The position numbers and the translations under genes are program-made. Shown piece after piece: positions 24,401-51,400 of a DNA stretch of 64,000 bases; within the stretch, counting starts at the first letter, position 1; every line of letters begins with the position of its first letter. The stretch comes from Octopus vulgaris (lineage: Eukaryota), in contig OX597824.1 in the NCBI GenBank assembly GCA_951406725.2, forward strand, positions 33,170,001 through 33,234,000, written 5' to 3'. Under the pieces are notes generated by a model. That model saw only the letters and a program-made list of their open reading frames with translations. It was not told where the DNA came from and searched no databases.

Positions 24401-27400
24401 TATAATGTGAATGACGTAAGAATTTAATAAACTTTTGAGAGAATATGAAAGAATTCTCTTTTAGAATAGCAGATCTCAAAGTGCATAAAGCTATAACTGA
24501 TATCCAAAAGGAATTTTTAACCCAATATTCAAAAGCTAACACATGCACACACACACACACATTTTATATGTGTATATATATATATATATATATATATCCC
24601 TTCCTTGGACTTTTCCTTATTCTATGTTTCTGACGAAGAGCTCCACTCGAAACATTAAAATCCTCCTTCTTTCTTTCCTTTCCTGAGCGTCCAATAACAC
24701 TATACTTGTTCCATATCCTCGTGTTGTTGTGTTTTCTCTTTGTTCATGTTTGGATTAACTATATATATATATATATATATATATATATATATATATATAT
24801 ATACATATACGACGAGCTTCTTTCAGTTTCCATCTACTAAATCCTCTCACAAGGTCTTGGCCTGAGGCTATAGTAGAAGGCACTTGCCCAAAGTGCCACA
24901 CAGTGGTACTGAACCCAAAACTGTGTGGTTGGGAAGCAAACTTCTTACCACACAGCCACATCTGTGCTTCATATATACAGTAGAACCTTGTAGTACAAGT
25001 GCACCATTGCTGTATGAACTGAGACTTGTTCAAATTTTTGTCTTGAAGTACGAGTGAAAGTACACAGTACGAGTGAAAGTACACAGTACGAGTGAAAGTA
25101 CACAGTACGAGTGAAAGTACACAGTACGAGTGAAAGTACACAGTACGAGCACACAAATTGTCCCATCTTTAAGGTAATTCAGTTAATAAAACCAGTTTAC
25201 ATATTTCCTTTGCATTCTCTTTTTTATAGTTGTTATTTTACTTGTAACTACACCCTTTTCTGTTTTAAAACCCACAAAAAATTATTTTTGGGTGGTTTTT
25301 GGGAGCTGGAACAGATTAATTATATTTTAGTTAATTTCAATGGGGAAAAACTGATTTGTAAAATGAGTTAATCATAATATGAGTTTAGACATGGAGTGAA
25401 TTAAACTTGTACTGCAAGGTATATACATACATATATATATATATATATATATATATATATATATATTTCGTTTTGGGATTTGGTTTGCAAGATACTTTAT
25501 ATGAGTTCATGTGTTGAAGCATATTCTGTTGTGTCTGGGGAGAGTCATTTATTTTTGTGCCTTATAATTTAACACACTCACCAGTAAAATTTCCATTTAT
25601 TTTACCGGTGAGTGTGTTAAATTATAAGGCACAAAAAGAAAATTACTCTCCCCAGACGAACAACAGAATATAAATATATATATATACATACACAATGAAA
25701 TTATTGTATACAGTGCTCAGGTGCACCACACTACACCTCGGAGTGGAGTAGGAAGGGCATCCAGCTGTGAAACATATATATATATATATATATATATATA
25801 TATATATATATATATATATATATACAGGAAGAAAGAGAGAGAGAGGGACTAAAAACATTGGAAGTGCAATATTGTAATCTTAAAAGCAAGCAAGTACTTG
25901 TGGTAAAGGAATTTTTAGCTATAAACAAAACAGTCATCACAGAAGTAAATTATTATTGCAGAAACCTAATAACTGTGTTGTTGAATTGCAGAAACCATTT
26001 GGCTGTTTTTCTTGCACATCCACTGTTATTACTGTTACACTTTCTTTAGTTGCAACAGTAATAATAGTCATTGCTGCCTGTAAACTAAGGTGCAAATAGT
26101 CGTTGCTGCTGGTACACTAACTAAATTCCAATCATAAACTGCATCGTTCTAAAGTAACTTGTAAGTATTTCAGAAATTAATGAAACTATGAAGAATATCA
26201 TGGAAATATCTGGAATTCCAAAGAAAGGAAGCATAACTGTGTGGTTGAAAAGCTCGCTTTCAACTATGTGGTCTTCAGTTAAGTTCCACTCTGTGACAAC
26301 TTGGGCAAGTACCTTCTGCTATAGCCCCAAGCTAACCAATGCTTTGCAAGTGAATTTGGTACATGGAAACAGTGTAGAAGTCCGTTGTATATAAATCCCC
26401 ACTGGATGCAAAGCAAAGATAGAAACAAATTTCTTTATTTAAGAACTTCTGTCTTTTTATGAACTATTTTACAAATTAAAACCAGCATGAAGATGCATGT
26501 TTATGTATTCACATATTCTGCATACATGCACACACACACACATAAAAGTACAATATACATGCATTTGGCACAGCTGACTGGACATTCGACTGTTTCCATA
26601 ACAATAGATTTTGCCATTGTGGGCAAACACATACAGGTATACACACACAGAGGCACACACACACACACACACACACACACACAAACACAGAGGCACACAC
26701 ACACACACACACACAACACACACACACACACACACATACAGAGAAAGCGAGAGAGAAAGTTGTGGTGAAAGAGTCAGCAGAAGTTTCGCCATTACCTTCT
26801 ACTGGAGCCGCGTGGAGCTTTAGTGTTTCGCTCATAAACACACACATTGCCCAGTCTGAGATTCGAACCCACGATCCCTCGACTGCGAGTCCACTGCTCT
26901 AACCATTAGACCATGTGCCTCCAAAAGGGAAACACCGACCTCCTCAGCGGAATTTGAACTCAGAACATAATGGCAGGTGAAATACCACTAAGCATTTTGC
27001 CCGGTGTGCTAACGATTCCGCCAGCTCACTGCCGTATGTCTAAGTGAGTATCAAAATGGTGGTGCCATATAAATAGAACTAAACCAGTAGCATGGAAATG
27101 TCTCATACCCATAACACGGTTTTTATCTTTGTGTAGCAACTGTTATTTCCTATTTGCTTATCCCTAGAAAGTATGAAAAATAACTAATGTTTCCTTCAAA
27201 ATTTGCTTTTGTTACATTTATTCAAACCCGCAAAGAATCCATCTCAACATATGGTTGTGATTTTCCCCACCACCCACTACTTCTGCTCATGGTCAGTGAC
27301 GCACATATTGTCAGCCACTAATGGACATGCTCAAGTGGTTAAGGTCAAGCAACTGACAAAGAAATCTGTGGTATTGAGCTGAATATTTGCTATAACGATA

Positions 27401-48400: not shown

Positions 48401-51400
48401 CTCTTGATGTTTTGTCATTTGTAGTAACAACATTCATTTTTTTGTGTATTAAAAGAATAAAATTTTGTTTATCAAAATCTCAATAGATGGCAGTGTTCTT
48501 TTTTGTACAATTCTATAACATTTTTTATCTTCTTGAGTTTCAACCTGATAATATTAACTGTGAGTGTCCGTTGGACTTTTGTTCTTTTTTACTGTGTGTA
48601 TATCATCATCATCATCATCATCGTTTAACGTCCGTTCTCCATGCTAGCATGGGTTGGACGGTTCGACCGGGGATCTGGAAAGCCAGAAGGCTGCACCAGG
48701 CTCCAGTCTTATCTGGCAGTGTTTCTACAGCTGGATGCCCTTCCTAACGCCAACCACTCCGTGAGTGTAGCGGGTGCTTTTTACGTGCCACCTGCATATA
48801 TATATATATATATATATATATATATATATATATATATATATATTTATCACTGATGAAGGGAAGGTTCTTATGAACTAACTCTGAAATCGGTCCGATATGA
48901 TAATAATGGGATTTTTTAGAAATTTCTATCGGCTTTATTCGAAATACATGCTTGTTAGTGATAAATTACATAGTGTCTATTTTCAGCATATTTTGGCATT
49001 AGAGATTTTTTCTTTTGCCCTTACTTATAAATTGTTTATAAATTTAACCTTTAAAGGTTTTTTTTAATATGCTGGCCATTGATAGAATTTTTTTTTAAAA
49101 ATTTTATCCTACATTAGATGTGTCTATATATATATATATATATATATATATAGCAAAAGAGAAGACTGCTGATTTGGTCACATGGTGCATACAAATGAGG
49201 ACAGTTGCTTAACCCTTTTGCTCCTTATGGAACACATGTATCCCAAGAAAAGTAAAATGGTTGGCATCCAGCTGTAGAAACCATGCCAAAACAGACAATT
49301 GGAGTCTGAACAACTCTCTGCCTAGCCAACTACTGTCAAACTGTCCAATAATAATGGTGATGATGATACACATATTATATATTCAGACCCCCTTTGGTCA
49401 CAAATGACCCATGCATATCATCTCCCCTCTCCACGCTACCAATGTTGTCCAAGGGAAAGGCAAACACTGATACAGCTTGGCACCAGTGATGTCACAACTC
49501 ATTTCTACAGCTGAGTGAACTGGAGCAACAGGTAATAAAGAGTCTTGCTCAAGAACACAACACACAGACTGGTCTGAGAATCAAACTCACTACCTCAGGA
49601 TTGTAAGCCCAAGGCTCTAACCACTGACCCATGTACCTTCACACACACACAAACTTACACATACATCACACACACACATATCAGACACACACACATACAC
49701 ACATACACACATACACACACACACACATATATAATTTATATATATATATATATATATATATATATAATATATATAGAGTGAGCAATATAGTGACCACTCT
49801 CTTATATTTATTTTGTAAAAATATTATAATATGTTATAAAATATTATAATAATCCAGGTTTCTCGAAGCACTAGGCCACTTGGTGTTGAATAAATATACT
49901 ATTAAATTAGTATCTAATTCTCTCACCCTTATTAATTAATTATATATATATATATATATATATATATATATATATCACTTTTTGTATATAGTCGTAGACT
50001 GGTACTTCAGTTCGTCCTCGGTTCAATTCAGGTATGTGATGTTGATTAGCCACAAAAATGGTGAAATATCAGTATCCATCACTCCTGAATGGGACTGGCT
50101 GTGGGTTGTCTCACTTGCCTATGACTTTCAGGTGTTTTGAACACACAATGGTATGAAGGTGTTGTCCCCAGAGTGCTTTACTGCAACGAACCGATATACA
50201 TGCATAACATACATTGAGCATGTGCAGGCAAATATGCTTACAACACTACCAGTGCTTTTAATTCATAATTAAATATATATATGTACACACACACACAAGT
50301 TTTAAAAAAAAAAAGAGCAAAAAAATCACAGATGAACTCTGAGTGTCAGTTTTGCCAAATTTTGATTCTAAAGACAGGAAAGCAAGAAAGATGACTAATT
50401 CTTGAATCGTTGTACTTACCTTGGTTTCCTGCAATCTGGGATGGTGTAGTATAATGCAAACTGGATAGGGTAAGATATGACCCATTTTACTATTGCCAAA
50501 ATTCCATCAGTACCTGCAAGAACAAAAAGATTACCTATATTTTTATTATTATTATTATCATCATCATCATCATCATCATTATTATTATTATTATTATTAT
50601 TATTATTATTATTATTATTATTATTATTATTATTATTATTATTATATGTTTGACTTTTGCTTTATATTTGTACCAAGTTGGCTCCAAGTCTCACCCAGAG
50701 ACCTCAAGAGACAACAGGCTGGAAGTTCATGTTGTTGTTATGCCTAGTGTGTCATATATTTGGTTTTGTATTTAGTGTTGTACTAGTGAATGTCTAAAAA
50801 AAACATACGAAAATTATGTTTGTTTTAAAACTTGAGATTACATAGATAGTATTTTGCATAGGATATGAGCAGTTCCCATGAGCACTATCTTTTGAATTTC
50901 TGCCATTTTTGGGTTTCCTGGTATCTGAGTTAGGTAGCAATCAGCCAATCAGCCCCTTTTGCTATCATTCCCAGGGCACCAATGACAACAGGTATTGTTT
51001 TAGTCTTCAGGTTCCACATTTTGCTGATTTCTATTTGCTCAGTTTTTGGTAGGTCTTGACAGATACGGGACATATCAATGAGGAGGCATGTTCTTTGTCT
51101 GAAGTCTTTCAATATGATGTCTGGCCTATTTGCATCTATCTTTCTGTCAGTTTGAATGGTGAAGTTCCAGAGGAGTGAGATGTGGTCATTTTCAAGCACT
51201 GGAGGTGGTTTGTGTTCCCACCGATTTTTTTCATGGGGCAAATCCAGGTTTTTGCAAATTACTCAGTGAATATATTGTGCAGCTCTATCATGCCTGTTGA
51301 GATACTCTGTAGGCGCTAGAAGACTGCACTTGGAGACAACAAGATCAATTGTTTCATTTTGTTGTTGACATACACGACATGTTGGGCTACTGCCGTTCTT

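Follow-up and report, generated by a model that had tools for sequence, protein, structure and literature searches.

The window analyzed here is a stretch of 64,000 nucleotides of Octopus vulgaris DNA (contig OX597824.1, positions 33,170,001 to 33,234,000). Its minus strand carries a gene for an NCKX-like Na/Ca exchanger (21334-50500), which extends upstream past the window. The exons lie near 21334-21477 (the last coding exon), 27700, 31900, 39600 and 50450, and Pfam Na_Ca_ex matched 3 of the 4 exon pieces of this gene. Three inserts, hereafter c1, c2 and c3, were found between TA runs at the positions given in an earlier note on this DNA, the left TA run of c2 consisting of a few repeats only. 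Each of them presents the sequence CUGANGA-stem II-GAAA on the plus strand and, as they are placed in introns of the minus-strand exchanger gene, all three are antisense to it, in agreement with that note. A copy-number check showed that the cassettes are multi-copy, not single-copy, and all are flanked by (TA)n; the candidate counts from the DNA searches (2288, 2550 and 3962) were not taken as copy numbers. The left ends of the three inserts are random truncation points and not element ends. Outside the core, local alignments compared with 200 shuffles revealed no significant similarity among the cassettes, and the observation that they share the core alone was therefore upheld. The three inserts are not one kind of thing.

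The type I hammerhead ribozyme (HHR) core C3-U4-G5-A6-N-G8-A9 plus G12-A13-A14-A15.1, with stems I-III and open at stem I, was recognized in the window copies of c2 and c3. The same core and stems are present in the majority of the c1 family, and stem III is broken in the c1 window copy. A fuller HHR descriptor gave 10 matches in 264 kb (the window and 200 kb upstream) versus 0-1 per shuffle in 10 shuffles; it picked up c2 and c3 and missed the decayed c1. Also, a weak descriptor match was seen at position 4869. As c1, c2 and c3 were all unreported by an Rfam scan, and as the c1 fold was no better than those of shuffles (z -0.47), it could be argued that AT-rich repeats produced these motifs by chance. 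However, exact core matches were obtained in thousands or hundreds with zero in the reversed-pattern controls, the HHRs sit in 3' UTRs of Penelope-like elements (PLEs), their layouts agree with published ones and compensatory changes are present. These observations rule out the chance reading, to which we attach a negligible probability. Self-cutting by the cassette HHRs is predicted.

In c1 (24598-24760, plus strand), we recognize the 3' end of a Neptune-type PLE that was truncated on its 5' side; the 3' end is fixed, and (TA)n comes after it. Its minimal type I HHR, located from the sequence and the family alignment at 24626-24660 (plus strand; core 24630-24636, GAAA 24649-24652, predicted cut after 24656), is constituted of a stem I of 3-4 bp, an extra A after A9, a short stem II and a zero-loop palindromic stem III. 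The family reads GAAA-CG-UU, CGTT being found in 40 of 71 tallied copies and CGTC in 3, and a G-to-A change in the window copy breaks the stem III palindrome (self-duplex +2.8 versus -3.5). The 26-nt core pattern gave 3,717 exact matches. At locus L225, RT, EN, UTR and c1 follow each other in this order. When 30 loci were found with the endonuclease end, at 9 of them the 1.5-kb downstream flank contained c1 in matching orientation, and the UTR just upstream of c1 was reached at 17. The parent element shows RT motifs, a CxxC-type linker and a GIY-YIG domain, C-terminal to the RT (Pfam RVT_1, E 1.5e-5; GIY-YIG, E 3.8e-4; neither match reaches the curated cut-off). The CX2-5CxxC linker between RT and EN was seen in the translations of L186, L200, L218 and L221. 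The clade names (Neptune, Hydra) used here follow from motifs and from comparison by eye and not from a tree; on this basis the c1 parent is probably a Neptune-type PLE, and the same linker exists in Nematis.

c2 is a chimera, in which a direct part (40165-40410, plus strand) representing the end of a Hydra-type PLE 3' UTR (short end) is joined via 8/9-nt microhomology to an inverted part (40086-40173, minus strand), which is a piece of the same element's own 3' tail. The type I HHR (40272-40362, plus strand; core 40281-40287, predicted cut after 40352) comprises a 9-bp bulged stem I, a 5-bp stem II with a long structured loop, a palindromic stem III at 40344-40351 and the triplet GUC. The order RT-EN-c2 was found in all 10 fetched loci, and two 3' ends account for 83 of 91 segments, with TA coming next in 77 of the 83. 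The c2 parent inserts in (TA)n, has a canonical HHR near its 3' end and shows a DKT motif (modified DKG) at L091/L059, L184 and L185. The CxCx5C linker is absent from its long ORFs, where an Asn/Ser-rich segment stands in its place; for this reason, we call it Hydra-type and not a typical Hydra-clade member. The N-terminal RWK motif had no match in 35 loci of this parent, all 5'-truncated. Pfam gave no match for any of three Hydra-type pieces.

The earlier note took the inserts for solo pLTRs or non-autonomous ribozyme retroelements. A corresponding reading is that all three stand free, as solo pLTRs or retrozymes, and move as non-autonomous units of 160-320 bp. In its favor, many copies are short and TA-bounded, and the c2 chimera occurs with the same junction at 4 of 40 scored loci. 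Against this, 5' ends vary continuously and the longer copies of c1 and c2 enter PLE ORFs; moreover, the recurring c2 junction lies on microhomology, and one of the 4 loci shares the flanks of the window copy. With variable 5' ends and PLE ORFs upstream, the free-standing reading is largely ruled out for c1 and c2, which are 5'-truncated PLE 3' ends, and only c3 keeps its non-autonomous status; applied to all three, it is very improbable. The proposed link to PLEs was confirmed for c1 and c2, whose parents are two autonomous-type PLE families.

The window also contains a young, 5'-truncated Hydra-type PLE (8161-10018, plus strand), with an RT region at 8265-9047, a CxCx5C linker and endonuclease at 8996-9664 (frameshifted in the window copy) and its own variant HHR at 9858-9920. 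It is preceded by an inverted 3' part of the same element (7201-8160, minus strand), which lacks roughly the last 70 nt before the long end and bears an inverted HHR with its core near 7283. The linker, C-terminal EN, (TA)n target and HHR are thus all present in the element at 7201-10018, the HHR core deviating by a C at position 4. By eye, its protein closely resembles that of Hydra-1_Obim, and copies of this young family show 99% identity in the genome. With the c2 parent, a distant relative, this PLE shares 40% identity across 189 aa of the RT region. The HHRs at 9858-9920, near 7283 and at 50026-50091 had been missed previously. PLEs such as this one had been suggested to mobilize the cassettes. 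Its HHR and tail are different, and no significant similarity, and hence no sequence link, to any of them was found.

c3 (48843-49125, plus strand) corresponds to positions 191-483 of an ORF-less, circularly permuted 483-nt unit, retrozyme-like with PLE-type ends; across copies the parent unit measures about 480-500 nt. The c3 pattern gave 480 exact matches, hence at least 480 copies, versus 0 for the control. The first 100 matches listed include 7 pairs placed head to head and 5 pairs on the same strand with a spacing of about 500 bp. The head-to-tail junction of the unit was found, in dimers and partial tandems with one type I HHR per unit; greater-than-unit copies are common, the longest reaching about 1.5 units, and long arrays were not seen. 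In 77 of 103 segments the 3' end falls at unit positions 400-409 or 475-483. The 5' ends are scattered over the entire unit, with no clustering at the predicted cut site. The PLE insertion signature is seen in the c3 copies: their 3' ends are fixed at two places, 5' parts occur inverted, the targets are TA and lengths beyond one unit are found. The unit has no long reading frame. A PLE-protein match was absent from 95 of 96 c3 loci, the single match being located past a TA run, and no autonomous partner was found at these 96 loci; the unit showed no homology to any of the three PLE families compared. Four contig sets cover the c3 unit; these are assembled contigs, silent on transcription, strand and circles. 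We conclude that c3 is likely a fragment of a non-autonomous ribozyme retroelement copied by a Hydra-type Penelope enzyme.

Taken together, our data lead to the reading, held with a probability of about 0.8, that two protein-coding PLE families left c1 and c2 as truncated 3' ends and that c3 is part of a non-coding unit which a Hydra-type Penelope enzyme likely copies, all three bearing a predicted hammerhead. All three window copies are likely inert intron passengers.

The c3 HHR (48844-48903, plus strand; core 48850-48856, predicted cut after 48897) is formed by a 6-bp stem I (48844-48849/48898-48903), a stem II (48857-48860/48879-48882) with an inner hairpin and a stem III (48886-48889/48893-48896). 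The cut site reads better as AUA (48895-48897) with stem III AUCG/CGAU, at -10.5 kcal/mol versus -1.9 for GUC, and the GUC reading was rejected for its worse energy and pairing. The earlier attribution of an HHR to each cassette holds for the core, present in all three, but not for GUC in c3. A very short, palindromic or near-palindromic stem III had been attributed to all of them. It is palindromic in c2 and in the c1 family and broken in the c1 window copy, and c3 has a stem III of 4 bp. Between c3 subfamilies, stem III is 100% paired and two pair changes are compensatory, each being one event; within the older subfamily alone, a similarity-selected set, covariation was not above shuffles (71/500). 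The layout agrees with published Hydra HHRs. In 3 of 3 natural c3 dimers the double-hammerhead fold beats two single ones by 10-13 kcal/mol; the minimum-energy fold of the three dimers is neither hammerhead fold, and the probability of the intermolecular stem III is about 0.2 in one dimer and about 0 in two.

Two fixed 3' ends were found for c2, c3 and the neighboring Hydra copy. In Anolis, the Poseidon element PAc is described as using two internal RT start sites, which yield a "tail", at a nicked AT-rich target (Frangieh et al., 2024, PMC11167929). By analogy, the two 3' ends of the octopus elements may have the same origin; PAc as described there belongs to a different clade, and the octopus tails measure about 70-160 nt. 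A PLE endonuclease would nick the (TA)n tract, as flanks and literature suggest, RT would begin at either of two fixed internal RNA sites and would drop off at variable points, giving the scattered 5' ends, and an inverted second product, such as those observed, would sometimes be left behind. As c3 copies reach about 1.5 units, a circular or multimeric template would be needed. Through the palindromic stem III, two tandem HHRs are predicted to cut as a pair and to free a unit-length RNA. We tentatively hypothesize that c3 is a cephalopod retrozyme which records how animal retrozymes spread, by a Hydra-type RT, a nicked (TA)n, two start sites and an RNA circle of about 490 nt, freed only by two hammerheads paired via an 11-12-nt palindromic stem III, a lone hammerhead being an inactive hairpin. 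If so, c3 and the young Hydra family of 99% identity, in the same genome, would constitute a testable enzyme-parasite pair.

It is also conceivable, at less than even odds, that c3 spreads via linear tandem transcripts of a few greater-than-unit masters, with no RNA circle and with an HHR that is conserved but unneeded for insertion. Loci with two HHRs exist, copies cross the predicted cut site, where 5' ends do not pile up, and HHR mutants of the lizard PLE are described as inserting normally in vitro (PMC11167929). However, the compensatory changes preserve the HHR structure between subfamilies, and greater-than-unit copies are common while no long arrays were seen, the longest having about 1.5 units.

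PLE hammerheads, the octopus Hydra HHR and animal retrozymes are already published, and the cassettes are of known kinds. The minimal HHRs of metazoan PLEs were described by Cervera and de la Peña (2014, PMC4209133). Like the HHRs presented there, c1 has an unpaired nucleotide after A9, G10.1-C11.1, a short stem I and loopless palindromic 15.2-16.2, and occurs mostly as single dispersed copies from truncated PLEs; in contrast to them, its stem II is shorter, with 4 bp, its triplet is GUU and, upstream, a CA-rich 3' UTR stretches over as much as about 1.8 kb. Hydra-clade PLEs with HHRs, including the octopus Hydra-1_Obim, were reported by Craig et al. (2021, PMC8557442) with a C-terminal endonuclease, a DKT motif, (TA)n targets, and an HHR near the 3' end with a palindromic stem III of 3-4 bp and, in many cases, one additional base flanking stem II on either side. 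These features fit the c2 parent, the element at 7201-10018 and the c3 HHR layout. Unlike the clade as described there, the c2 parent replaces the CxCx5C linker by the Asn/Ser-rich insert, core position 4 is C and not U in the 7201 family, and c3 has no ORF. The inserts c1 and c2 are ordinary, truncated PLE ends bearing known hammerheads.

Non-LTR retrozymes of metazoans were described by Cervera and de la Peña (2020, PMC7229834), and their origin from and mobilization by PLEs was proposed in a preprint (Li et al., bioRxiv 10.64898/2026.07.22.740005). As in these accounts, c3 is non-coding, with one type I HHR per unit, a GC content of 34%, head-to-tail copies and coexistence with PLEs. For c3, circles and cleavage are predictions. 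The c3 unit exceeds the range of 170-400 nt stated in PMC7229834 for invertebrates and, unlike the elements described there, forms dispersed partial tandems instead of long arrays, with a PLE tail and inversion structure. It constitutes a further case of a non-coding hammerhead unit with a PLE insertion signature, which supports the still-inferred idea that animal retrozymes are mobilized by PLE enzymes, and could serve as a concrete substrate when PLE-driven mobilization is tested in vitro.

It had also been proposed that host selection purges sense-strand HHR insertions from introns, which would explain three antisense cassettes. The exchanger gene contains 5 antisense cassettes and 1 sense, in favor of this proposal, but the sense-strand cassette of this same gene is intact. 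Also, two dynein genes (600 kb) gave 7 antisense and 5 sense descriptor matches, and the three genes pooled, all on the minus strand of their contigs, gave 10 versus 6 (p=0.45). Such selection is therefore unlikely; the common antisense placement of the cassettes in the host gene is not supported as a wider pattern, and the strand test takes away the sole host-selection claim.

A fourth HHR cassette lies at 50026-50091 (plus strand). This dead copy belongs to an older family, in which the core shows the U3-A8 variant, stem I is extended and loop II is HH9-like; it scored 31.4 bits with Rfam HH9, under the gathering score of 52.

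HHR (hammerhead ribozyme) cores with stem II were found at 24630, 40281 and 48850, in the (TA)n-flanked cassettes c1 (24598-24760), c2 (40090-40410) and c3 (48843-49125) that an earlier note had described. Searches of the 2.8-Gb genome revealed that all three are multi-copy repeats, each present in 40 of 40 scored places, with identities of 92-100% (c1), 85-100% (c2) and 86-100% (c3). The exact core pattern gave 3,717 matches for c1 and 480 for c3, and the reversed-pattern controls gave none. For each family, the top 30 loci had a constant 3' end and a variable 5' end, and a TA run followed the 3' end in 23/30 (c1), 16/30 (c2) and 26/30 (c3) copies, against a background of 10%. 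The c2 figure is lower because many c2 copies run on into a tail; when both c2 3' ends were counted, TA followed in 77/83. The three cassettes are real, and each is explained by its own type of element.

Walking stepwise upstream of c1, we met a CA-rich 3' UTR and then a GIY-YIG domain. Among loci picked by the end of this domain, 17/30 extended to the UTR just upstream of c1, and 9/30 held c1 itself, in the same orientation, inside the 1.5-kb flank. In one locus (L225), reverse transcriptase (RT), endonuclease (EN), UTR and c1 are consecutive in that order. The linker and RT motifs fit a Neptune-type Penelope-like element (PLE) as the putative parent, with Pfam scores under the cut-off. The c1 HHR is of the minimal type described in PMC4209133: an additional A follows A9, stem I is short, and the palindrome has no loop. 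The triplet of the family reads GUU, and the palindrome is broken in the window copy. The parent 3' UTR (~1.2-1.8 kb in L151, L164 and L147) consists chiefly of degenerate CA repeats, whose order is conserved from copy to copy.

An endonuclease frame lies upstream of the direct part of c2. A protein search scored 150 places, all at 81-100% identity, and the RT region, EN and c2 came in this order in 10/10 loci chosen among them for long open frames. The Hydra-type parent presents DKT, and its RT region is 40% identical to that of the PLE in the window. Where the CxCx5C linker is expected stands an Asn/Ser-rich stretch, of ~100 residues in L176-L185 and grown to poly-Asn in L055 and L059. The ends of this parent still abut (TA)n, which is relevant to whether TA targeting is set, as has been proposed, by the Cys linker. 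Family members stop at one of two 3' ends, ~155 nt apart (83/91 segments); the window copy stops at the short one, and in front of it stands an inverted stretch of tail, as described for PLEs in PMC8557442. By eye, a related family showed double changes preserving pairs in stems I and II. Also, the window copy and one on another chromosome (L031/L032) have in common their inversion junction and ~250 bp of flanking repeat on both sides, which suggests that the pair was duplicated along with the host repeat.

Upstream of c3 lie 190 nt, themselves preceded by c3's own 3' end, thus indicating a 483-nt circularly permuted unit (~494-503 nt in a younger subfamily). In 58 loci selected by similarity, some of them overlapping, 77/103 segment 3' ends fell at two positions, 5' ends were scattered across the unit, head-to-head pairs were frequent and the longest copies reached ~1.5 units. 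Within the element, none of 96 loci gave a PLE protein match. The proposed tie of the cassettes to PLEs is shown for c1 and c2, which have PLE ORFs upstream; c3 fits the alternative of a non-autonomous ribozyme retroelement, one likely copied by a Hydra-type PLE enzyme. The c3 HHR, for which a GUC triplet had been proposed, is better read with an AUA triplet and stem III AUCG/CGAU, a layout that agrees with the one Craig et al. tabulate for Hydra HHRs (PMC8557442). Stem III was 100% paired across 22 distinct copies sampled in order of coordinate, and two pairs were altered on both sides between subfamilies; these compensatory changes amount to two events rather than 19, and no covariation excess was seen in the older subfamily on its own. 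The predicted fold of a lone c3 HHR pairs the core strand into an arm of stem III. For three natural dimers, the double hammerhead was predicted to be 10-13 kcal/mol better than two single ones; it was not the minimum-energy fold and was appreciably populated in 1/3. HHR activity is not to be assumed, as only 1/9 Xenopus dimers cleaved (Li et al., bioRxiv 10.64898/2026.07.22.740005) and the HHR of a lizard PLE required protein and was not needed for in vitro insertion (PMC11167929).

PLE hammerheads, (TA)n targeting, tails, inversions and an octopus Hydra HHR are already in print, as are animal retrozymes with a proposed PLE origin. A literature search on cephalopod and octopus hammerheads and retrozymes, outside most subscription journals and Repbase, listed no paper on an octopus retrozyme; neither "hammerhead" nor "ribozyme" occurs in the main text of PMC13282606.

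The Hydra-type PLE at 7201-10018, named in the earlier note as an example of a driver, is of the right type; it has no significant sequence in common with c1, c2 or c3, and is thus a candidate by type only. Its family is young (41 matches, 98-100%). The CxCx5C linker is present, there are two 3' ends, and the 5' part is inverted; by eye, the protein closely matches Hydra-1_Obim. The HHR of this PLE presents C at core position 4 in 31/31 tallied copies, where older relatives have the canonical U; in a viroid, a U4C variant is reported to be weak but viable (PMC3088659). This HHR (9858-9920, + strand; inverted copy near 7283, - strand) also shows an extra U before GAAA, a GUU triplet, and a core strand complementary also to a stretch within loop II.

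The - strand carries the host gene, a Na/Ca exchanger (3/4 exon pieces matched Pfam Na_Ca_ex), presumably NCKX, a name kept from the earlier note and consistent with NCKX motifs. Since its final coding exon lies near 21334-21477 and more exons occur up to ~31 kb past the window, the cassettes are indeed intronic and antisense to the pre-mRNA. By chance alone, all three cassettes would be antisense with a one-sided probability of 1 in 8. Elsewhere the gene contains one intact sense-strand cassette and two further antisense ones. In two dynein heavy-chain genes, located through Pfam ends and covering 600 kb, a descriptor of the HHR core and stems matched 7 times antisense and 5 times sense (0-2 matches per region on shuffles). 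Pooled with the exchanger gene, the tally was 10 antisense and 6 sense (p=0.45), from a small sample that includes some inverted pairs and draws all three genes from the - strand. A slight antisense bias may exist; the suggested host selection against sense copies is not borne out by these counts or by the sense cassette in the same gene.

That TA-bounded sense cassette (L287:7440-7715, - strand) carries an intact-looking HHR, and its left end is an inverted copy of the region immediately 3' of the core. Also upstream of the window are an intronic, antisense HHR-bearing insert (L287 near 6853, + strand) and, shortly before the first exon found, a c2-like HHR insert in sense orientation (L288 near 4932, - strand). 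Within the window, a weak descriptor match at 4869 (+ strand), outside the exchanger gene, may reflect chance or decay, and a perfect 19-bp tandem repeat of 5.4 copies occupies 25047-25149.

At 49978-50270 (+ strand) lies a member of an older family of repeats (41 matches, mostly 76-84%), with its HHR at 50026-50091 and a unit of roughly 360 bp, judged by eye from a partial tandem in L311. In this HHR, stem I is extended and has an internal loop, and loop II is HH9-like. U3 and A8 replace C3 and G8 in 14/20 aligned copies, a covariation described in PMC4209133, and A8 is lost in the window copy. In the dynein introns (L325-L384), at least 8 different HHR families occur in 600 kb, with intact-looking motifs at ~2 per 100 kb.
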